A stretch of DNA of 64,000 nt from Syntrophaceae bacterium UBA1411 (lineage in GTDB: Bacteria > Desulfobacterota > Syntrophia > Syntrophales > Smithellaceae). Under the pieces are notes generated by a model, which searched no databases, was not told where the DNA came from, and saw nothing but the letters and a program-made list of their open reading frames with translations. Each line of letters opens with the position of its first letter. Position 1 is the stretch's first letter. Shown here piece after piece: positions 13,586 through 54,778 of this stretch. The stretch lies in assembly GCA_002304995.1 (NCBI GenBank), contig DBPV01000004.1, positions 1,613 to 65,612 of the forward strand, read 5' to 3'. The position numbers were made by a program, and so were the translations under genes.

Positions 13586-13663
13586 GTAATCAAAAAAACT
13601 TTTGACAACGGCCGCATTTTGCATTAAGGAGAACGACAATTTGTTTTTTAAAGGATAGGTTAC

Positions 13664-13783
13664 ATGTTCAGTTTTACGGCAATCACGATTTCGGCATGCG
13701 CTCTTCTGACCCTGCTTCTGGGCCTCGCCTTGTTGCGCCTGGTCTTAAAGGCCGCCTGCCCGTCGTCTTCAGGTCGTCACTGA
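13664..13783 (+). CDS. putative Leu-rich leader peptide of the leu operon
   Basis: 39-codon ORF MFSFTAITISACALLTLLLGLALLRLVLKAACPSSSGRH*, below the track cutoff. 10 Leu codons fall within a 16-codon stretch. It sits between the upstream terminator and a terminator that precedes leuA. Confidence 0.45.
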   Translation: MFSFTAITISACALLTLLLGLALLRLVLKAACPSSSGRH

Positions 13784-13814
13784 ACGTTAAGCATAACGAA
13801 TCACCTGAAAAAAA

Positions 13815-13850
13815 GGCCGTGGGCAGCAAATCCCACGGCCTTTTTCGTTT
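13815..13850 (+). terminator. intrinsic terminator in the leuA 5' leader (candidate attenuator)
   Basis: GGCCGTGGG-cagcaaat-CCCACGGCC followed by TTTTTcgTTTT. It ends 40 nt before the leuA ATG. Confidence 0.7.
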
Positions 13851-13889: not shown

Positions 13890-15440
<1,551 letters not shown>

Positions 15441-44141: not shown

Positions 44142-44768
44142 CTAAAACACCCGCTGGAAATCGCGGTCCCGCAGAAGGGTCGTAAAGGCCAGATCGATGA
44201 GCTGGTAGCCGCGCCGTTCCAGTTCGGCCTTGTCTTCGGTGGCGGCCGGCGCCATTGTCACCGTGAAATCCTTGTCCAGTTTCGTTTCGCCTTCCTTGAA
44301 GATAAGCGCCTTGAATTTCAATTCCTGATCGGTCATTGACAGCAGAATAAACTGAAATTCGGCCACTCCCCGGGGCGCCTTGTAGCCGCCGGGACCGGGA
44401 GCGCCCCACCACCAGCCGTGGCGGTAAGGATGGCTGCCATCATAGGTGTAGTCCACGAGAATCACGCCGACATGCTTGAAAGCCTTCTGAAAGCTGTTCC
44501 AGTACAAATTTTCGAGGCTCACGTTGCCTTCATAATTCAGTTTGTTGTCCGGGCTGAAATAGTTGTAGGTTTTGGTATTCTGGGCCTGATTGAAAAAGCT
44601 CGAAAGCACCAGCTTCTTGCCTTTGTAACGGGCAAAGTCGTTTGCCTTGAAGGAAGGGGCGTACTTTTCCTGCGTCATCGTGATTTTCGTGCCGCCCGCG
44701 CAGCCGGTTACAACCAGCGCGAGAATGCAAAAGCCCGCCAGGGCACGCCAGGGAATAATTTTTTTCAT
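44142..44768 (-). CDS. lipoprotein of unknown function
   Basis: Start moved to ATG 44768 (MKKIIPWRALAGFCILALVVTGC...), preceded by AGGAGG. Lipobox LVVTGC. I recognise no family. It contains an unusual HPYRHGWWWGAPGPGGY patch. Confidence 0.6.
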   Translation of the reverse strand: MKKIIPWRALAGFCILALVVTGCAGGTKITMTQEKYAPSFKANDFARYKGKKLVLSSFFNQAQNTKTYNYFSPDNKLNYEGNVSLENLYWNSFQKAFKHVGVILVDYTYDGSHPYRHGWWWGAPGPGGYKAPRGVAEFQFILLSMTDQELKFKALIFKEGETKLDKDFTVTMAPAATEDKAELERRGYQLIDLAFTTLLRDRDFQRVF

Positions 44769-46156: not shown

Positions 46157-47146
46157 ATGAAAACACATGATGGCCATTTGAGCCGCAGATCGTTTTTAAA
46201 GATCGGCGCGGGCGCGGCGGCCCTGGCCGGCCTGAAATGGCCGAAAACGGCCGGCGCCGCCGATGAGAAGCGTCTGGCGACGCTCATTGACTTAAGCCTG
46301 TGCGACGGATGTCCCGACCGCCCGATGCCGGCCTGTGTCGGCGCCTGCAGGGCCATCAACAAAGACAAAATTCCGCCGGTCGCCAAAAACATTCCCGAAC
46401 CCTGGCCGCGCAAGACCATTGAGGACTGGTCGAAGAAAAAAGAGGTCTTCAACCGTCTGACGCCTTACAATTTCATTTACGTGCACGATGTCCGGATCGA
46501 CGGAAAAACGATTTACGTTCCCCGCCGCTGCATGCACTGCGACAATCCTCCCTGTGCGACCATCTGTCCGTTTTCCGCCAACCACAAAGAGAAAAACGGC
46601 GCGGTGGTCATCGAGCAAAACCAGTGTTTCGGCGGAGCGAAATGCCGGGATGTTTGTCCCTGGGAAATTCCCCAGCGCCAGTCCGGCGTCGGCATTTACC
46701 TGCATGTCCTGCCGGATTTCATGGGCAACGGCGTCATGTACAAATGCGATTTGTGCAACGAGCGACTCCAGGAGGGAAAGCTTCCCGGCTGCGTTGAAGC
46801 ATGCCCCCGCCAGGCCATGCTCATCGGTCCGCGCCGGGAAATTGAAAAAAACGCCCTCGAGCGCGCCCGGGCGATGAACGGCTATCTTTACGGCAAAACG
46901 GAGAACGGCGGAACATCGACCTTCTACGTCTCGCCCGTCTCCTTTGAAAAGATCACCCGGGCGATGGAGAAAAAACCGGGCCGTCCCGACATGAAGCCGG
47001 ATGTCAAAAGGCGCATGGCCGCCACCGATCCGCTGGGCAACGCCGTCCTCGCCGCGCCGGTCCTGGGCGCTGTTGCCGCGGGCGCGCTGGGATGGATTTC
47101 CCGCCGCAAAGCGCAGGGGAAAAAGGAGGGCGAAAATCATGGCTGA
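46157..47146 (+). CDS. Tat-exported 4x[4Fe-4S] ferredoxin-type subunit with C-terminal membrane anchor (FdnH/HybA-like)
   Basis: 329 aa. Twin-arginine signal (SRRSFLK). Four Cys clusters (CDGC...C..AC, CMHCDNPPCATICP, CFGGAKCRDVCP, CDLC...CVEACP). C-terminal TM helix. Confidence 0.85.
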   Translation: MKTHDGHLSRRSFLKIGAGAAALAGLKWPKTAGAADEKRLATLIDLSLCDGCPDRPMPACVGACRAINKDKIPPVAKNIPEPWPRKTIEDWSKKKEVFNRLTPYNFIYVHDVRIDGKTIYVPRRCMHCDNPPCATICPFSANHKEKNGAVVIEQNQCFGGAKCRDVCPWEIPQRQSGVGIYLHVLPDFMGNGVMYKCDLCNERLQEGKLPGCVEACPRQAMLIGPRREIEKNALERARAMNGYLYGKTENGGTSTFYVSPVSFEKITRAMEKKPGRPDMKPDVKRRMAATDPLGNAVLAAPVLGAVAAGALGWISRRKAQGKKEGENHG

Positions 47147-47906
47147 GAAAATTCTTGCCGCAGAAAACCGCGTCGTCCGCCACAGCCGGCTTGAACTGGC
47201 CGAACACTGGGCCATTGCTCTGTCGGGCCTTGTTTTGCTTTTAACCGGCATTTTCGAGCTGCCGGTCGCCAAACGCTACTACATCATCACCGTGCCGGGG
47301 CTGGGCTGGTCGGCCGACTTCATCACCTCCCTTTACCTGCATTACGCAGCGGCCTTTGTGTTCACCGCGGCGGCGCTGTTTCATCTGGTCTATCACGGTC
47401 TTGGCGGCGAAAAGGGACTGCTGCCGCAAAGGGGCGATTTCCGGGCGTCGGTTGCCGTTATCAAAAGTTTCATCGGTCTGGGCAAGGAGCCGCCGCAGCA
47501 CAAGTATCTGCCGGAGCAGCGTCTGGCGTATGCGGGCATGGCATTCATCATTTTGCTCCTGATCGCCTCGGGGCTTGTCAAAACGTATAAAAACATTTAC
47601 GCGCCGGATCTGTCCCATACAGTGCTTCTCTGGGCCACCTGGGCGCACAACATCGGATTTATTTTGTTTTTCCTCGCCTTTCTGGCGCACATGGCGGCTA
47701 TTGCGCTCAAACCCAACTGGCCGATGGTCCGCGGCATCTTCACGGGAAAAGTCCGTCTGGACTATGCGCAACACCGCCATGGCTTGTGGCTGGCCGATCT
47801 GGCGCAAGCCTCCCCGGAGCCGGCCGAACCGCCGGCAGACCAAACAGGCGCCGAAGGGAAAAATCCTCCGCCGCCGGACGGGGAGAAGACAGCCCCCGGA
47901 CCGTGA
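47139..47906 (+). CDS. di-haem cytochrome b subunit (FdnI/PhsC/Ni-Fe hydrogenase cytochrome b family)
   Basis: 255 aa from ATG 47139 (AAGGAGG upstream; 8-nt overlap with the FeS gene). Four TM helices with conserved His residues (HW.., HY.., H.. on helix 4). Pro/Glu-rich C-terminal tail. Confidence 0.8.
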   Translation: MAEKILAAENRVVRHSRLELAEHWAIALSGLVLLLTGIFELPVAKRYYIITVPGLGWSADFITSLYLHYAAAFVFTAAALFHLVYHGLGGEKGLLPQRGDFRASVAVIKSFIGLGKEPPQHKYLPEQRLAYAGMAFIILLLIASGLVKTYKNIYAPDLSHTVLLWATWAHNIGFILFFLAFLAHMAAIALKPNWPMVRGIFTGKVRLDYAQHRHGLWLADLAQASPEPAEPPADQTGAEGKNPPPPDGEKTAPGP

Positions 47907-47917
47907 AAGAAAAATTG

Positions 47918-47946
47918 TTGACACGAACCGCCGGCCTTGCTATAAG
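47918..47946 (+). promoter_or_regulatory. sigma-70 promoter of the trp leader/operon
   Basis: TTGACA (47918-47923), 17 nt, TATAAG (47941-47946). Confidence 0.65.
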
Positions 47947-47969
47947 GCAGCCGTTATTTGGAGAGAGAA

Positions 47970-48047
47970 ATGAAAAACATATCTTTAACCCTGAATTTGA
48001 ATAGCTGGTGGTGGTGGAGCCTCGCCGGGAGGTGCGTCCGCCGCTGA
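47970..48047 (+). CDS. trpL: trp operon leader peptide with four tandem Trp codons
   Basis: ATG 47970, preceded by GGAGAGAG. It encodes MKNISLTLNLNSWWWWSLAGRCVRR*. The TGG codons occupy 48006-48017. The ORF is below the track length cutoff. Confidence 0.8.
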   Translation: MKNISLTLNLNSWWWWSLAGRCVRR

Positions 48048-48069
48048 TCTTTTTGCATAAAAAGTCCAG

Positions 48070-48111
48070 GCCGTGGAGACCCTCTCGGGACTCCACGGCT
48101 TTTTTGTTTTT
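48070..48111 (+). terminator. trp attenuator terminator (first)
   Basis: GCCGTGGAG (48070-48078) pairs with CTCCACGGC (48091-48099), with an inner CCC/GGG stem, followed by TTTTTTgTTTTT. Confidence 0.8.
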
Positions 48112-48120
48112 AAACAATCC

Positions 48121-48158
48121 AAAAGGCCGTGAAAAAAAAATTTTTCCGGCCTTTTTTT
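48121..48158 (+). terminator. second intrinsic-terminator-like hairpin in the trp leader
   Basis: AAAAGGCCG-t-GAAAAA-aaaa-TTTTTC-CGGCC followed by T7. It ends 10 nt before the trpE RBS. Confidence 0.6.
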
Positions 48159-48180
48159 ATTTCGCACGAAGGAGTTGCAA

Positions 48181-49674
<1,494 letters not shown>

Positions 49675-49683
49675 GAGGCGCCG

Positions 49684-50271
49684 ATGATTCTGATGATCGA
49701 CAATTACGATTCCTTTACCTTCAACCTCGTTCAATACCTGGAACAGATGGGCGAAGAGGTCCGGGTGTACCGCAACGACAAAATCACCTGCGACGGCGTC
49801 CGCCGGCTGAAGCCGGAGGCGATTGTGCTCTCGCCCGGCCCCTGTTCGCCCCGGGAGGCGGGCGTCACCGTCGACGTGATCCGCGAATTTTCCGAATCCG
49901 TGCCGCTTTTGGGCATCTGCCTGGGGCACCAGTCCATCGGATTTGCCTTCGGCGGCGAAGTCGTCCGCGCGGACCGCATCATGCACGGCAAAGTGTCGCC
50001 CGTCGAGCACGACGGCAAAACCGTTTTCGCAGGCCTGCCCAATCCCTTTACCGCCGGCCGGTACCACTCGCTGGTAGTGCGGCCCGGATCCCTGCCCGAC
50101 TGTCTGGAGGTGAGCGCCCGGACGGCCGAAGGCGAAATCATGGGGCTGAGGCACAAGCGCTACCCCGTGGAGGGCGTTCAGTTCCACCCCGAATCCGTGC
50201 TGACGCCGCAGGGCAAGCGCATTTTGCGCAACTTTTTAAAAAACATCCGGAGAAAGGAGCAGCATATATGA
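49684..50271 (+). CDS. trpG: anthranilate synthase component II (glutamine amidotransferase)
   Basis: 195 aa. GICLGHQ catalytic Cys and the ..VQFHPES.. His/Glu motif. Confidence 0.95.
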
Positions 50272-51278
50272 TCAGGGAAGCCATTGACCGGGCCGTCGGA
50301 AGAGTCGATCTTCCGGAGGAAGAAATGATGGCGGCGATGGAAGAAATCATGAACGGCGACGCCACGCCGGCGCAGATCGGTTCGCTCATCACCGCGCTCA
50401 GAATGAAAGGGGAGACGGTCGAGGAAGTGACCGGCGCGGCGCGCATCATGCGCCAGAAAGCCGCGCGCGTCAACGCCTGCGCGAGAACCGTCGTCGATAC
50501 CTGCGGCACCGGCGGCGACAAACTGGGCACGTTCAACATTTCCACGGCGACGGCGTTTGTCGTGGCGGCGGCGGGCATCGTCGTCGCCAAGCACGGCAAC
50601 CGCGCCGTCTCCAGCGGCTGCGGCAGCGCCGACGTTCTCGAAGCCCTGGGCGTCAACATCAGCGTCGATCAGGAAATCGTCGAGGAATGCCTCCAGCAGA
50701 TCGGCATCGGCTTTCTCTTCGCGCCGAAACTGCACGGCGCGATGAAATACGCCATCGGTCCGCGGCGCGAAATCGGCATCCGCACCATCTTCAACATGCT
50801 GGGGCCGCTCACCAATCCCGCAGGCGCCACCGCGCAGCTTCTGGGCGTCTACGATCCGAAGCTCACCGAAATGTTCGCCGATGTTTTGAAAAACATGGGA
50901 ACGAAACGCGCCTTTGTCGTTCACGGAGCGGACGGGCTCGATGAAGTCACCGTCACCGGCGAAACCCGCGTGGCGGAATTAAACGACGGCATCGTCCGGA
51001 CCTACAATATCCATCCGAAAGACTATATCGGCAAAACCTATCCGCTTCGCGACCTCCGGGGCGGCGATCCGGCCGAAAACGCCCGGATCCTCGGCGGCGT
51101 GCTTTCCGGGAAACCGGGCGCCTGCCGGGATGTCGTCCTCCTGAACGCGGCGCTGGCGATTGTGGCGGGGGAGAAAGCGGCGGATATCCGGGAAGGCCTT
51201 CGGGTGGCGGCCGAGTGCATCGACAGCGGCGCGGCGGTTAAAAAATTGCAGGCGCTCATTGAAATGAGCAACGCCTGA
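50268..51278 (+). CDS. trpD: anthranilate phosphoribosyltransferase
   Basis: 336 aa. [17 protein letters not shown] and ..NMLGPLTNP.. motifs. ATGA overlap with trpG. Confidence 0.95.
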
Positions 51279-51335
51279 TCCCGTCGCCGCCGGGGCAAAA
51301 AAATTTTTTCAGGAGAAGAAGCGGTTGAGAATAAA

Positions 51336-52121
51336 ATGATTTTAGACAAAATTATCGAAACCAAAAAGGAAGAAGTGGCCGTGTTGAAAAAGACGACGAC
51401 CGTCGAACGCCTGCGGGACGAAATCGCCGGCCGGCCGCCCTGCCGGGATTTCCGCGGCGCCGTCGGCGGCCGGCGCTGCGCCGTCATTGCCGAAGTCAAA
51501 TGCGCCTCTCCGTCGCGCGGGAGGCTGGTGGAGCATTTCGATCCCCTCGCCCTCGCGACAATCTACGCGCAAAACGGCGCGGCGGCGATTTCCGTTTTGA
51601 CGGACGAAAAATATTTTCTGGGCCATAAAGACCATCTGGCGCAAATTCGGCGCGCGGTCCACCTACCGGTTTTGCGCAAGGATTTCATCATCGATCCGCT
51701 GCAGATTTATGAAACGCGGGCGATCGGCGCGGACGCCGTTTTGCTGATCGTCCGCGTGCTGGGACCGATGCTTTCCGCGTTCATCGATCTTGCCCGCACG
51801 CTGGGATTAAGCCCGCTGGTGGAGGTGCACACGGAAGAAGACCTGCGCCTGGCGCTTGGGGCCGGAGCCGAAATCATCGGCATCAACAACCGCAACCTCG
51901 ATACGTTTGTCACGGACATCACGACCAGCCGCGATTTGAAAAAGAGCATTCCGGAAGACAAAACCGTCGTGGCGGAAAGCGCGATTAAGCACCGGGCCGA
52001 CATCGACTATCTGATGAACGAAGGCATCAAGGCGTTTCTGATCGGGGAAGGACTGGTGACCGCGCCGGACATCGGTTGCAAGCTGCAGTCTTTTCTGGGG
52101 AGCAACGGCCAATGCAGGTGA
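51336..52121 (+). CDS. trpC: indole-3-glycerol-phosphate synthase
   Basis: 261 aa. ..IAEVKCASPS.., ..LRKDFIIDP.Q.., ..IGINNRNL.. motifs. Confidence 0.93.
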   Translation: MILDKIIETKKEEVAVLKKTTTVERLRDEIAGRPPCRDFRGAVGGRRCAVIAEVKCASPSRGRLVEHFDPLALATIYAQNGAAAISVLTDEKYFLGHKDHLAQIRRAVHLPVLRKDFIIDPLQIYETRAIGADAVLLIVRVLGPMLSAFIDLARTLGLSPLVEVHTEEDLRLALGAGAEIIGINNRNLDTFVTDITTSRDLKKSIPEDKTVVAESAIKHRADIDYLMNEGIKAFLIGEGLVTAPDIGCKLQSFLGSNGQCR

Positions 52122-52765
52122 AAATTTGCGGCATCACCAATCTGGAAGATGCGCTCTTCGCGGCCCAATACGGCGCTGCGGCGCTGGGATTTATTTTTTA
52201 TCCCCCCTCGCCGCGCTTTGTCGCGCCGCAAAAGGCCAGAGACATTATCGCAGGCCTGCCTGCGCATCTGGTCAAAGTCGGCGTCTTCGTCAATGAAAAA
52301 AAGGACGTCATCGACCGGATCTTTGAAGATTGCCGCCTGGACATGCTGCAGCTCCACGGCGATGAATCGCCCGCGTTTTGCCGTCAATTTCCGGGCCGCC
52401 GAATCATCAAGGCGCTGGAGCTCAAAAGCGACGGAGATCCGGACCAGGCCGCCGCTTTCGAAACCGCCGCCATCCTGGTCGATGCCCGGCAGGCCGGGCT
52501 TTACGGAGGAACGGGCAGGACGGCCAACTGGGAACTCGCCTGCCGGATGCCCCGGCCGGTGATCCTCTCAGGGGGCCTCACCGAAGACAACGTTCTTGAC
52601 GGATTGCGGAAAGTCAAGCCTGTGGCGCTCGACATCAACAGCGGCGTGGAAGAAAGACCCGGCAAAAAGAACGCCGCCAAAATTGCGCGGATGATGCAGA
52701 TCATTCAGCAGGAGACAGCAGGCGATGCGTCGCCGCAAATCTTTGTGCGAAGGGAACAGCAATGA
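52112..52765 (+). CDS. trpF: phosphoribosylanthranilate isomerase
   Basis: Real start is ATG 52112 ([10 protein letters not shown]...), with a 10-nt overlap with trpC. ..LQLHGDE.. and ..ILSGGL... motifs. Confidence 0.9.
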
Positions 52766-53943
52766 AAACATTACCGGATAAAAAAGGGCATTTTGACATT
52801 TTTGGCGGCCGCTATGCCGCAGAAACATTGATGCCGGCGCTTCTGGAGCTGGAAGAGGCCTACGCCGGCGCCCGCAGGGACAAATCGTTTGAGCAGGAAT
52901 TCGCCGCGTACCGCCGCGACTACGCAGGCCGGCCGACGCCGCTTTACCCGGCGCAGAGGATGACCCGGACTCTGGGAGGAGCAAAGATTTACCTCAAGCG
53001 CGAGGATTTGAACCACACCGGTTCGCACAAGATCAACAACACGCTGGGGCAGGCGCTTCTTGCCAGACGGATGGGCAAGAAAAAGGTCATCGCCGAAACG
53101 GGCGCGGGGCAGCACGGCGTCGCCACCGCCACTGTCGCGGCGCTCTTCGGCATGGAGTGCAAAATCTTCATGGGCGAGGAAGACATCCGGCGCCAGGCGC
53201 CCAACGTCTTCCGCATGAAAATTCTGGGCGCGGAAGTGGTGCCGGTGAAAAGCGGAACGGCCACGCTCAAAGACGCCATGAACGAAGCCATGCGCTACTG
53301 GGTGGGCAGCGTCCGCGACACGTTCTACATCATCGGTACGACTGCCGGGCCGCACCCCTATCCCATGATGGTGCGCAATTTCCAGTCGGTCATCGGCCGG
53401 GAAATCAAGCGGCAGCTCGCGCACCGGGAAGGACGGGGGCCGGATGCGCTGGTGGCCTGCGTGGGCGGCGGCTCCAACGCCATGGGCACGTTTTATCCCT
53501 TCCGCAACGATCCGGCCGTAAAAATGTTCGGCGTCGAAGCGGCAGGCCGCGGCCTTGCCACGTCCGAGCATTCCGCCAGCATCAGCGGCGGGAAGATCGG
53601 CGTCCTGCACGGCAACAAAACCTATCTCCTGCAGGACGAACACGGCCAGGTGCGCGACGCGTATTCCATCGCCGCCGGCCTCGACTATCCCGGCGTGGGG
53701 CCGGAGCACGCCTACTTTGCCGCCGTCGGGCGCGTTTCTTACGTCGCGGTAACGGACAAGGAAGCGGTCGAGGCGTTTTTGTTTTTGTCGCGCCAGGAAG
53801 GCATCATTCCGGCGCTGGAAAGCGCGCACGCGATTGCCCATGCTCTGAAGATCGCGCCGTCGATGAACAAAAACGAAATTATCGTCATTTGTCTGTCCGG
53901 CCGCGGCGACAAGGACGCCCAGACGATTATGGAAACCCTTTAG
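52762..53943 (+). CDS. trpB: tryptophan synthase beta chain
   Basis: 393 aa. ..[16 protein letters not shown].. PLP-lysine motif and ..GGGSNA.. motif. ATGA overlap with trpF. Confidence 0.96.
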
Positions 53944-53966
53944 GGAACGCTCGCGAGCGTTCCCTA
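53941..53966. repeat. perfect 26-bp palindrome spanning the trpB stop codon
   Basis: TAGGGAACGCTCG|CGAGCGTTCCCTA. The two 13-nt halves are exact reverse complements, and the first TAG is the trpB stop. No U-tract follows. Confidence 0.9.
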
Positions 53967-53971
53967 AACAA

Positions 53972-54778
53972 ATGAGGAACATGATGGGACGAATATCTGA
54001 AAAATTTATCGCGTTGCAGGCCCGCAACGAAAAGGCGCTGATCGTATACTTGACGGCGGGCGATCCGTCGCTGGCCAAAACCCGGGAGCTTATTTTGGAG
54101 CTGGAAAAAGCGGGAGCGGACATGATCGAAATCGGCGTGCCTTTTTCGGACCCGACGGCCGACGGTCCGGTCATCCAGGCCGCCGCACAGCGGGCGCTGA
54201 AAAACGGCACGACCCTCGCGGGCGTCCTGGCGATGATTGCCGAGTTGCGCAGAGTCTCCGCAATCCCCGTTTTGCTTTTCGGCTACTACAATCCGATCTT
54301 CGCCTGCGGACCGGAAAAATTCGCCGCGGCGGCGAGGGAGGCGGGCGCAGACGGCCTTCTGGTGGTCGATCTGCCGCCGGAAGAAGCGGCCGAGCTGCGC
54401 GTCCACACGGACGCGGCGGGGCTGGACTTCATCTCGCTCGTCGCACCGACAACGGGCAGGGACCGCCTGAAAACCATCCTCCGGACGGCTGCGGGATTTC
54501 TCTACTACATCTCCATCACGGGTGTGACCGGCACGGCCGCGCCGAAGATCGAAGATCTGGCCCGCGACGTTGCAAAGATCCGCAGGCTCACGAAAATGCC
54601 GATTGCCGTGGGATTCGGCATCACAAACGCCGCGCAGGCTGAAGCAATCGGCGCCGTCGCCGACGGCGTCGTCATCGGAAGCGCGGTGGTGAAGCTCATT
54701 GACGAACACCACAATCATCCGGACCTGCTTGCGGTTGTGTCCCGCTACATCGGAGGCATCAAGGCGGCGCTGCGTTAA
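53972..54778 (+). CDS. trpA: tryptophan synthase alpha chain
   Basis: 268 aa. ..YLTAGDPS...E.G.D.IEIGVPFSDP.ADGP.IQ.. motif. The start could also be ATG 53981 or 53984. Confidence 0.93.
   Translation: MRNMMGRISEKFIALQARNEKALIVYLTAGDPSLAKTRELILELEKAGADMIEIGVPFSDPTADGPVIQAAAQRALKNGTTLAGVLAMIAELRRVSAIPVLLFGYYNPIFACGPEKFAAAAREAGADGLLVVDLPPEEAAELRVHTDAAGLDFISLVAPTTGRDRLKTILRTAAGFLYYISITGVTGTAAPKIEDLARDVAKIRRLTKMPIAVGFGITNAAQAEAIGAVADGVVIGSAVVKLIDEHHNHPDLLAVVSRYIGGIKAALR

Follow-up and report, generated by a model that had tools for sequence, protein, structure and literature searches.

We analysed a stretch of 64,000 nucleotides of contig DBPV01000004.1 (positions 1,613 to 65,612, forward strand) from Syntrophaceae bacterium UBA1411, hereafter the window, and report that the leader of its trp operon, trpEGDCFBA, is in all likelihood a ribosome-mediated transcription attenuator, probably extended by a relay to a second terminator. 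Our confidence is highest for classical attenuation at the first terminator (T1). We also lean toward the view that the 3′ arm of T1 places the second terminator (T2) under the same sensor, by pairing with the T2 5′ arm in an alternative helix. The basic mechanism is ordinary and its only unusual trait is a pair of terminators whose arms can pair with each other. A first-pass annotation, made from the letters alone, had already proposed a classical-type trp attenuator in a deltaproteobacterium-like genome, and both proposals agree with what follows, the host belonging to the Smithellaceae.

Architecture of the trp leader

A trpL-like open reading frame (ORF) of 25 codons begins 24 nt past the −10 hexamer of a TTGACA-17-TATAAG promoter and ends 133 nt ahead of trpE. 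The promoter, the ribosome-binding site, the ATG at 47970, the four tandem Trp codons, T1 with its interrupted U-run, and T2 with seven U residues ahead of the trpE ribosome-binding site had all been described by the first-pass annotation and all were found where it had put them; the trpE start codon, which it implied at 48182, is at 48181. The elements of the leader are as follows.

47918–47946 (+), promoter of the leader and operon: −35 TTGACA at 47918–47923, 17-nt spacer, −10 TATAAG at 47941–47946 (read from the sequence)
47960–47965 (+), Shine-Dalgarno sequence of the leader ORF, GGAGAG, ending 4 nt 5′ of ATG 47970 (read from the sequence)
47970–48047 (+), leader ORF, 25 codons encoding MKNISLTLNLNSWWWWSLAGRCVRR, then UGA at 48045–48047
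48006–48017 (+), regulatory Trp codons, four UGG in tandem
48010–48023 (+), segment 1, 5′ arm of hairpin 1:2 (Trp codons 2–4 plus AGCCUC), from the minimum free energy (MFE) fold and the RNAalifold consensus
48029–48045 (+), segment 2, located where the leader ORF ends; it serves as 3′ arm of 1:2 and as 5′ strand of antiterminator 2:3 (GGAGGUGCGUCCGCCGC)
48046–48066 (+), A/U-rich spacer hairpin (CUUUUU..AAAAAG), enclosed by 2:3 and present in both conformations
48070–48111 (+), T1: segment 3 (48070–48082) with segment 4 (48087–48099), then U6GU5 (48100–48111)
48070–48099 (+), the T1 arms, GCCGTGGAGACCC/GGGACTCCACGGC (as RNA GCCGUGGAGACCC/GGGACUCCACGGC)
48094–48131 (+), alternative helix 4:5, an inverted repeat of CACGGCUUUUU (48094–48104) with AAAAGGCCGUG (48121–48131), which excludes T1 and T2
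48122–48158 (+), T2: segment 5 (48122–48136) with segment 6 (48141–48154), U7 at 48152–48158
48170–48174 (+), trpE Shine-Dalgarno sequence, AGGAG, ending 6 nt 5′ of ATG 48181 (read from the sequence)
48181–54778 (+), trp operon trpEGDCFBA, from Pfam matches

This leader is not a chance feature, since the Trp-codon run TGGTGGTGG is expected by chance at 0.21 occurrences per window, the 236-nt leader folds at −85.9 kcal/mol compared with −62.4 ± 4.7 kcal/mol for shuffles (z = −4.97), and the ORF and hairpins recur in essentially all relatives. Runs of TGGTGGTGG are also found on the minus strand at 2092–2100 (−) and 44406–44414 (−), where they may be inside coding sequence.

Three hairpins, 1:2, 3:4 (T1) and 5:6 (T2), are found in both the MFE fold of the window leader and the RNAalifold consensus of 76 sequences. 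In hairpin 1:2 (48010–48045) the Trp codons UGGUGGUGG pair with CCGCCGC, which includes two CGC Arg codons, and CCUC pairs with GAGG; the UGGUGG:CGCCGC portion uses both G–C and G–U pairs, and the stop codon abuts segment 2. The T1 stem has 12 pairs and one A–A mismatch and is followed by U6GU5. The alternative set consists of two helices. In the 2:3 antiterminator, UUCCGCCGC pairs with GCCGUGGAG and GGGAGG with CCUCUC, enclosing the small A/U hairpin (fold of 48027–48086, −24.0 kcal/mol), and in helix 4:5 the segment 4 sequence CACGGCUUUU (T1 3′ arm plus U-run) pairs with AAAGGCCGUG (T2 5′ arm plus A-run). Helix 2:3 and T1 are mutually exclusive; the fold check which the first-pass annotation had suggested finds both an antiterminator and a terminator structure possible. 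Together the two sets, 1:2/3:4/5:6 and 2:3/4:5, cover all six segments and are conserved. The description of T1 and T2 as tandem terminators thus holds in that both are present, but they are not simply tandem: the 3′ arm and U-run of the first are complementary to the 5′ arm and A-run of the second in every one of the 76 leaders.

The predicted helix energies were as follows.

Helix 1:2, window −22.4 kcal/mol, family mean −18.8 kcal/mol
Helix 2:3, window −24.0 kcal/mol, family mean −20.7 kcal/mol
Helix 3:4 (T1), window −25.1 kcal/mol, family mean −22.2 kcal/mol
Helix 4:5, window −15.5 kcal/mol, family mean −16.2 kcal/mol
Helix 5:6 (T2), window −16.3 to −19.4 kcal/mol depending on the stretch folded, family mean −18.0 kcal/mol

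The five helices are therefore of similar stability, with family means from −16 to −22 kcal/mol. Heuristic estimates of the direct-path barriers, made for the window, came to about 14.5 kcal/mol for the passage from 2:3 to T1 and about 10 kcal/mol for that from 4:5 to 5:6, and on this heuristic basis such heights would suffice for kinetic trapping while the polymerase transits the U-run.

As the first-pass annotation remarked, the Trp-codon segment resembles the 5′ arm of T1, the likeness expected of segments 1 and 3. The same likeness accounts for a complementarity between the Trp-codon segment and the T1 3′ arm (48014–24 with 48086–96); we set that pairing aside, as a stalled ribosome would cover the segment and the regulatory logic would be wrong.

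Conservation of the leader among relatives

Relatives were collected by scanning one genome per species with the TrpE protein alone, which gave 80 loci with identities of 53–95%; because the search made no use of the leader, it provides an unbiased test of leader conservation. All 80 loci come from metagenome-assembled genomes, nearly all labelled Smithella, Smithellaceae, Syntrophaceae or Syntrophales, with one Desulfobacca. Conservation counts refer to the 77 loci with upstream sequence, and those for leaders to an alignment (A1) of 76 sequences, that is, 75 relatives and the window.

The attenuator was found in 75 of the 77 relatives, which bears out the conservation of the Trp-run ORF upstream of trpE that the first-pass annotation had proposed to check. 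At least three tandem TGG codons are present in 74 (four in 52 relatives, three in 21), and the Desulfobacca locus, L080, has a broken run, WCWW, together with both hairpins. At locus L045, where the upstream sequence is only 153 nt long, T2 is visible, and at L011 a long insertion separates the leader region from trpE. In all, about 170 related sequences keep the attenuator.

The consensus leader peptide reads ..L-N-L-N-N-W-W-W-W-N-L-T-G-R-I-F-R-R-stop. Its stop codon lies exactly nine codons past the Trp run in 66 of 74 relatives and is UGA in 58 of the 63 loci counted. The promoter is conserved as well: TTGACA stands at a conserved distance in 68 of 76 leaders, and a TTGACA plus TATAnn promoter (at least 9 of 12 matches) is present in 72 of 76, its −10 hexamer mostly ending 59–71 nt ahead of the Trp run. 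The conserved −10 hexamer usually ends in G or A rather than in the consensus T (TATATG 19, TATAAG 14, TATAAA 7, TATAGG 6).

Both hairpins are present in every one of the 76 leaders, T1 as a canonical intrinsic terminator with a U-run at least 90% conserved. The T1 core pairs GCCGUG/CACGGC are invariant or nearly so. T2 is followed by a U-run in 66 of the 76, its loop varies from 3 to 8 nt, and its flanking A-run and U-run covary (for example CGAAGG..CCUUCG).

The alternative helices are conserved along with the terminators. Across the 76 sequences, 92.9% of alignment cells can pair in 2:3, 93.4% in 4:5 and 91.6% in both together. When a ribosome mask was placed on the Trp run and segment 4 was left untranscribed, segment 3 paired with segment 2 in 71 of 76 leaders. 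Segment 4 paired with segment 5 in all 76, using all six bases of CACGGC, when segment 3 was excluded and segment 6 had yet to be transcribed.

Between T2 and the trpE ribosome-binding site, about 26 relatives carry one to four copies of an inserted repeat of 85–100 nt (L008, at about 817–915, L003, L009, L011, L012, L015, L016, L018–L020, L022, L026–L029, L039, L040, L043, L044, L046, L049, L050, L060, L066 and L078). Its consensus resembles AATGAGACCCAAGCTTCAGAAAC..GCTGAAGCTTG.TGGTCGAATTATCCC..(hairpin)..GGGAT and folds into two hairpins. It had no match in Rfam and no copy was found in the 64-kb window; a small repeat of mobile or REP-like kind is one possibility for its nature, a structured RNA another.

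A proposed mechanism

Our computation found each component of a classical trp-type attenuator, namely a leader ORF with ribosome-binding site and Trp codons, an intrinsic terminator, a 2:3 antiterminator, and a 1:2 hairpin with the matching stop placement. From these sequence elements, their conservation, their pairing potentials and their energies we infer the following course of events, in which the kinetics and the operation of the 4:5 relay are predicted, as are translation of the leader ORF and a response to Trp-tRNA charging. Transcription would start just past TTGACA/TATAAG and the leader of 25 codons would be engaged by a ribosome. With abundant Trp-tRNA this ribosome would reach the UGA and mask segment 2, and when no ribosome is present hairpin 1:2 would form; with segment 2 either masked or held in 1:2, segment 3 would pair with segment 4, T1 would form and RNA polymerase would halt at U6GU5. 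When Trp-tRNA is scarce the ribosome would stall at the four UGG codons and occupy segment 1, and the free segment 2 would capture segment 3 as it emerges, giving the 2:3 antiterminator of −24 kcal/mol. Because segment 3 would already be engaged in 2:3, T1 would be unable to form in time.

A second stage would extend this classical scheme. In the induced state the unpaired segment 4 and its U-run would bind segment 5 and its A-run and block 5:6, leaving both terminators open, and in the terminating state 3:4 would stay intact, 5:6 would form, and T2 would catch polymerases leaking past T1. One sensor would act on two terminators in series, so that repression is multiplied without a second sensor, and an unusually high stringency is plausible. 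The 4:5 complementarity, present in every one of the 76 leaders, makes it probable that this switch also gates T2.

The same hairpins behind other leaders

Within the 64 kb there are just two occurrences of the GCCGTG..CACGGC hairpin, T1 of the trp leader and one in the leader of leuA (13815–13840, followed by a U-run). Judged by its sequence, the region 13602–13850 is a second leader-peptide attenuator, with the following elements.

13602–13607 (+), −35 TTGACA of the leuA leader
13664–13783 (+), Leu-rich leader ORF, 39 codons including 10 Leu codons, MFSFTAITISACALLTLLLGLALLRLVLKAACPSSSGRH followed by a stop (ALLTLLLGLALLRLVL)
13808–13845 (+), single terminator AAAAAAAGGCCGTGGGCAGCAAATCCCACGGCCTTTTT
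13890–15440 (+), leuA, directly downstream of the Leu-rich leader, from Pfam

The base of the leu terminator stem, GGCCGTGG/CCACGGCC, is identical to that of trp T1 and T2. As both GCCGTG..CACGGC hairpins are attenuator terminators, the stem is attenuator-specific in this genome. From its sequence, the leu stem would be a lone regulated terminator whose 5′ arm is targeted by an antiterminator strand, the same role that segment 4 would have toward T2. The leuA leader matched no Rfam family.

We also scanned metagenomes with a pattern that contains no Trp run, consisting of CACGGCTTTTT, 12–34 nt, GCCGTG, 3–14 nt and CACGGC (the T1 3′ arm plus T2), and obtained at least 120 loci. Among the matches listed, about 95 lie between a Trp-run ORF and trpE, about 8 are coding-region matches due to chance, and in about 14 the T1–T2 pair follows a leader ORF of another kind. 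With the hexamers built into the pattern, the sample is biased; it demonstrates that the pair is found outside trp but says nothing of its frequency. The other leaders and the genes downstream of them are as follows.

L093, L187 and L152, Phe-rich leaders (..YFAFFSFFSG.., ..RFFSFFSFFG..): Peripla_BP_6 ABC binding protein
L198, Phe/Tyr/Trp-rich leader (..RFYFGFYYYWY..): DeoC-type aldolase, 3-dehydroquinate synthase II and an aroE-like putative shikimate dehydrogenase (this third gene identified without a Pfam run)
L096, Phe/Tyr-rich leader: DAHP synthase
L127 and L196, four-Trp leaders on AT-rich contigs: trpB2-like-trpD-trpC, or a 38%-identical trpE
L108, L186, L130 and L170, other leader peptides: ABC transporter genes
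L104, another leader peptide: an ORF without Pfam match
L192, T1–T2 pair: downstream sequence too short for gene identification

In each leader class segment 2 is complementary to the variable part of the T1 5′ arm. The trp leaders match the T1 5′ arm GGAGACCCUC with GGGAGG..UCC at the end of the leader ORF, the aromatic leaders match GGCAGACC with the segment 2 sequence GGUCUGCC, and the ABC-transporter leaders match UGGGCGC with GCGCCCA. Segment 2 and the distal, variable stretch of the T1 5′ arm vary in concert, an independent line of compensatory evidence in favour of the 2:3 logic. We put at about even the chance that a one-sensor, two-terminator relay with its T1–T2 pair is a portable platform reused behind Trp, Phe/Tyr/aromatic and ABC-transporter leaders.

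Weighing the alternatives

Several observations weigh against this model, some of them against the relay in particular. T1 is thermodynamically preferred over 2:3 (−33 versus about −25 kcal/mol) and, being the stronger, makes the model dependent on kinetics, as in E. coli; in the window itself the z score of 2:3 against segment 2 shuffles is only −1.5. The family-wide mean z scores against partner shuffles, −3.3 for 2:3 and −4.2 for 4:5, are inflated by the relatedness of the sequences, and the slide control, in which only 37–56% of cells paired once partners were shifted by 1–3 columns, is biased because the alternative structure was derived from the same sequences. Changes on both sides were found in only 5 of 27 alternative pairs, classical covariation being sparse because the helix cores are nearly invariant (GCCGUG and CACGGC in T1 and T2, CCGCCGC in segment 2); we read this invariance as the likely mark of double duty, each segment having two partners to satisfy. 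In 10 of 76 leaders T2 is not followed by a good U-run. The leu leader keeps the stem without a 4:5 partner, and because it reuses it as a single terminator, T1 and T2 could owe their common hexamer to shared ancestry or to some other constraint, not to 4:5. Finally, what is known of this lineage comes almost entirely from metagenome-assembled genomes.

In one alternative, T1 would be the sole regulated terminator and T2 would be constitutive, serving as a backup or partial terminator, as a 5′ hairpin that stabilises the transcript, or as an insulator, and the 4:5 complementarity would be a by-product of T1 duplication. That T2 keeps its hairpin in the leaders where its U-run is poor, that 5:6 is slightly stabler than 4:5 (−18.0 versus −16.2 kcal/mol), that a barrier of only about 10 kcal/mol separates 4:5 from 5:6, and that the single leu terminator conserves the same stem with no 4:5 partner would all fit. 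A strong unregulated terminator (about −18 kcal/mol, with U6–8 in 66 of 76 leaders) would, however, also reduce expression under Trp scarcity, and 4:5 reaches past the shared hexamer into the T1 U-run and the T2 A/G-run in 76 of 76 leaders, including that of Desulfobacca, whose TrpE is 53% identical. Furthermore, the T2 core is invariant, while independent terminators normally drift by covariation, and the upstream gene context differs in 66 of 75 relatives, which rules out insulation from a single neighbour as the reason for T2. We regard a constitutive T2 as possible but doubtful.

A second alternative takes the near-invariant GCCGUGG..CCACGGC stems as sites for a factor acting in trans, be it a protein that binds RNA or a partner or target of an attenuator small RNA once released. 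Such a factor would decide termination at one hairpin or at both, alongside the ribosome relay or in its place. Stem conservation does far exceed what a terminator needs, the stem is attenuator-specific (only the trp and leu leaders in 64 kb) and is common to leaders of different amino-acid classes in metagenomes, and in Sinorhizobium meliloti the released trp attenuator RNA works in trans (PMC6614838). We nevertheless think such a factor unlikely: no candidate was identified, several pairing partners per segment can explain the invariance by themselves, the leader ORF with its regulatory codons is already a sensor, and the T2 loop of 3–8 nt speaks against a DNA operator of fixed spacing. On that same ground, the variable spacing of the arms, we ruled out the reading of the T2 palindrome as a DNA operator.

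The coding pattern of the leader peptide bears on the last alternative. After the Trp run each residue is encoded by one codon across the family (AAC, CTC, AGG, CGC, CGC), and such single-codon use points to constraint at the RNA level, with the helices and not the peptide under selection. Ahead of the run (L-x-L-N-N; 47952–48005 in the window), the amino acids are conserved with a variety of synonymous codons among 73 relatives: Leu at position −3 in 57 of 73 loci by five codons (CTT 29, TTG 17, CTG 4, TTA 4, CTC 3), Asn at −2 in 69 of them, and at −1 one of Asn, Gly or Ser in 70. Peptide-level conservation ahead of the regulatory codons is not expected of classical leader peptides; here it appears to operate at the level of the peptide (or of decoding), and the RNA model does not account for it. 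It is this pattern, with the fixed distance from the Trp run to the stop and the prevalence of UGA (58 of 63 loci), that could suggest a nascent peptide aiding sensing in the manner of TnaC, high free Trp causing a ribosome pause at the stop 9–12 residues past the Trp run so that segment 2 is held and T1 favoured, but we consider this very improbable, since the peptide has no sequence similarity to the conserved D16 or P24 of TnaC, the conservation past the Trp run is at the nucleotide level and explained by the RNA helices, and the classical model requires no arrest at the stop codon.

Genomic setting

The operon that follows the leader comprises these genes, identified from Pfam matches.

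48181–49674 (+), trpE, Chorismate_bind and Anth_synt_I_N
49684–50271 (+), trpG, GATase
50268–51278 (+), trpD, Glycos_transf_3
51336–52121 (+), trpC, IGPS
within 52076–52765 (+), trpF, PRAI
52762–53943 (+), trpB, PALP
53972–54778 (+), trpA, Trp_syntA

Upstream lies a gene pair encoding a TAT-signal 4Fe-4S protein (46157–47146, +) and cytochrome b561 (47001–47906, +). As listed, the two ORFs share 146 nt, an overlap from which the true cytochrome b start is probably a later codon. The pair stops 12 nt 5′ of the trp −35 hexamer with no terminator in between, and the first-pass annotation had proposed that the leader hairpins may insulate trp from read-through of the cytochrome b gene. As a general purpose of T2 this is ruled out, because no more than 9 of 75 relatives share the cytochrome b synteny, whereas T1, T2 and the dedicated promoter are nearly universal; the conserved promoter distance and the rarity of this synteny indicate instead that the leader travels with trpE and its own promoter and not with the neighbouring gene.

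A scan of the window for consensus promoters and terminators listed neither the trp promoter nor T1 and T2 and is uninformative here, since its rule demands T at position 6 of the −10 hexamer and its loop and stem limits exclude both terminators.

Significance

Attenuation by leader peptides is textbook knowledge, documented mainly in Gamma- and Alphaproteobacteria and in Actinobacteria; here it appears as the conserved trp control of the Syntrophales, syntrophic degraders of fatty acids and alkanes in anaerobic digesters and sediments. The points of note are the frozen, complementary double terminator, its reuse across leaders for different amino acids in a lineage not in culture, and the peptide-level conservation ahead of the Trp run. 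By linking two terminators, an attenuator might multiply its dynamic range in a simple manner and with no second sensor, a principle that would be useful for synthetic switches. The relay, if true, would explain why so much non-coding sequence is frozen, as every arm must suit two partners. Unannotated attenuators of uncultured genomes, with their small ORFs, could also be tracked down through the reuse of the hairpin pair behind Leu, aromatic and transporter leaders.

Comparison with known systems

The Rfam Trp_leader family (RF00513) was absent from the 22 matches at E ≤ 10 for 47700–48400, all of them sub-threshold and generic two-hairpin in kind (trpB motif, VrrA, L20 leader and others), and from the gathering-threshold scan of the whole window, which returned two tRNAs only; a search of six related loci against Rfam likewise found nothing. 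We found no description of a trp attenuator in delta-proteobacteria or Syntrophales, or of tandem terminators in leader-peptide attenuators, in a search mostly outside subscription journals, so that an earlier mention in comparative genomics is possible. Tryptophan is not mentioned in Rodionov 2004 (PMC545781).

The closest likeness is to the trpL leader of E. coli and other enterobacteria, which has Trp codons in tandem within a short promoter-proximal ORF, alternative hairpins 1:2, 2:3 and 3:4, a stop codon placed for masking of segment 2, and an intrinsic terminator ahead of trpE that is stronger than the antiterminator. There is, however, no detectable homology of sequence or structure, as RF00513 went unmatched. 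The leader described here has four (or three) Trp codons where E. coli has two, these codons themselves form the 5′ arm of 1:2 by pairing with the CGC CGC Arg codons, a second terminator is present that is complementary to the first, and the peptide is conserved ahead of the Trp run.

In S. meliloti the trpE(G) attenuator (trpL/rnTrpL/peTrpL) releases an RNA and a peptide that can have functions of their own (PMC6614838, PMC7298713). It too is a ribosome-dependent trp attenuator outside the enterics with consecutive Trp codons, but it has a single terminator where there are two here. That the Syntrophales leader RNA or peptide might act in trans by analogy is pure speculation.

The trpB RNA motif (RF04312, PMC11109978) is known from Firmicutes and Fusobacteria and has no leader ORF. 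It resembles the present leader in having two hairpins of which the second is an intrinsic terminator, with an anti-terminator strand proposed in the 3′ shoulder of the first, and in lying sometimes upstream of trp genes. We rejected membership in this family, however, since 48072–48161 scored 32.1 bits against a gathering threshold of 59 (E = 0.017), the match reflects a generic shape of two hairpins and a U-run, and the host belongs to the Syntrophales.

Tandem T-box elements and tandem riboswitches occur ahead of trp and other operons. Tandem attenuators have also been described for mgtCBR (PMC3641672). Such arrangements likewise place two serial termination decisions before one operon, giving tighter or more switch-like control, but they have one sensor per terminator, whereas here there is a single leader ORF and T2 appears to read the state of T1 through shared arms.

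The relay itself is closest in design to the his leader of Salmonella and E. coli, where six segments form A:B, C:D and E:F or, alternatively, B:C and D:E. There, as proposed here, a six-segment chain passes the position of the ribosome through alternating helices to a distant terminator. In the his leader only E:F terminates; in the Syntrophales leader the middle helix, 3:4, is also a full terminator with its own U-run, which gives two termination points in series.

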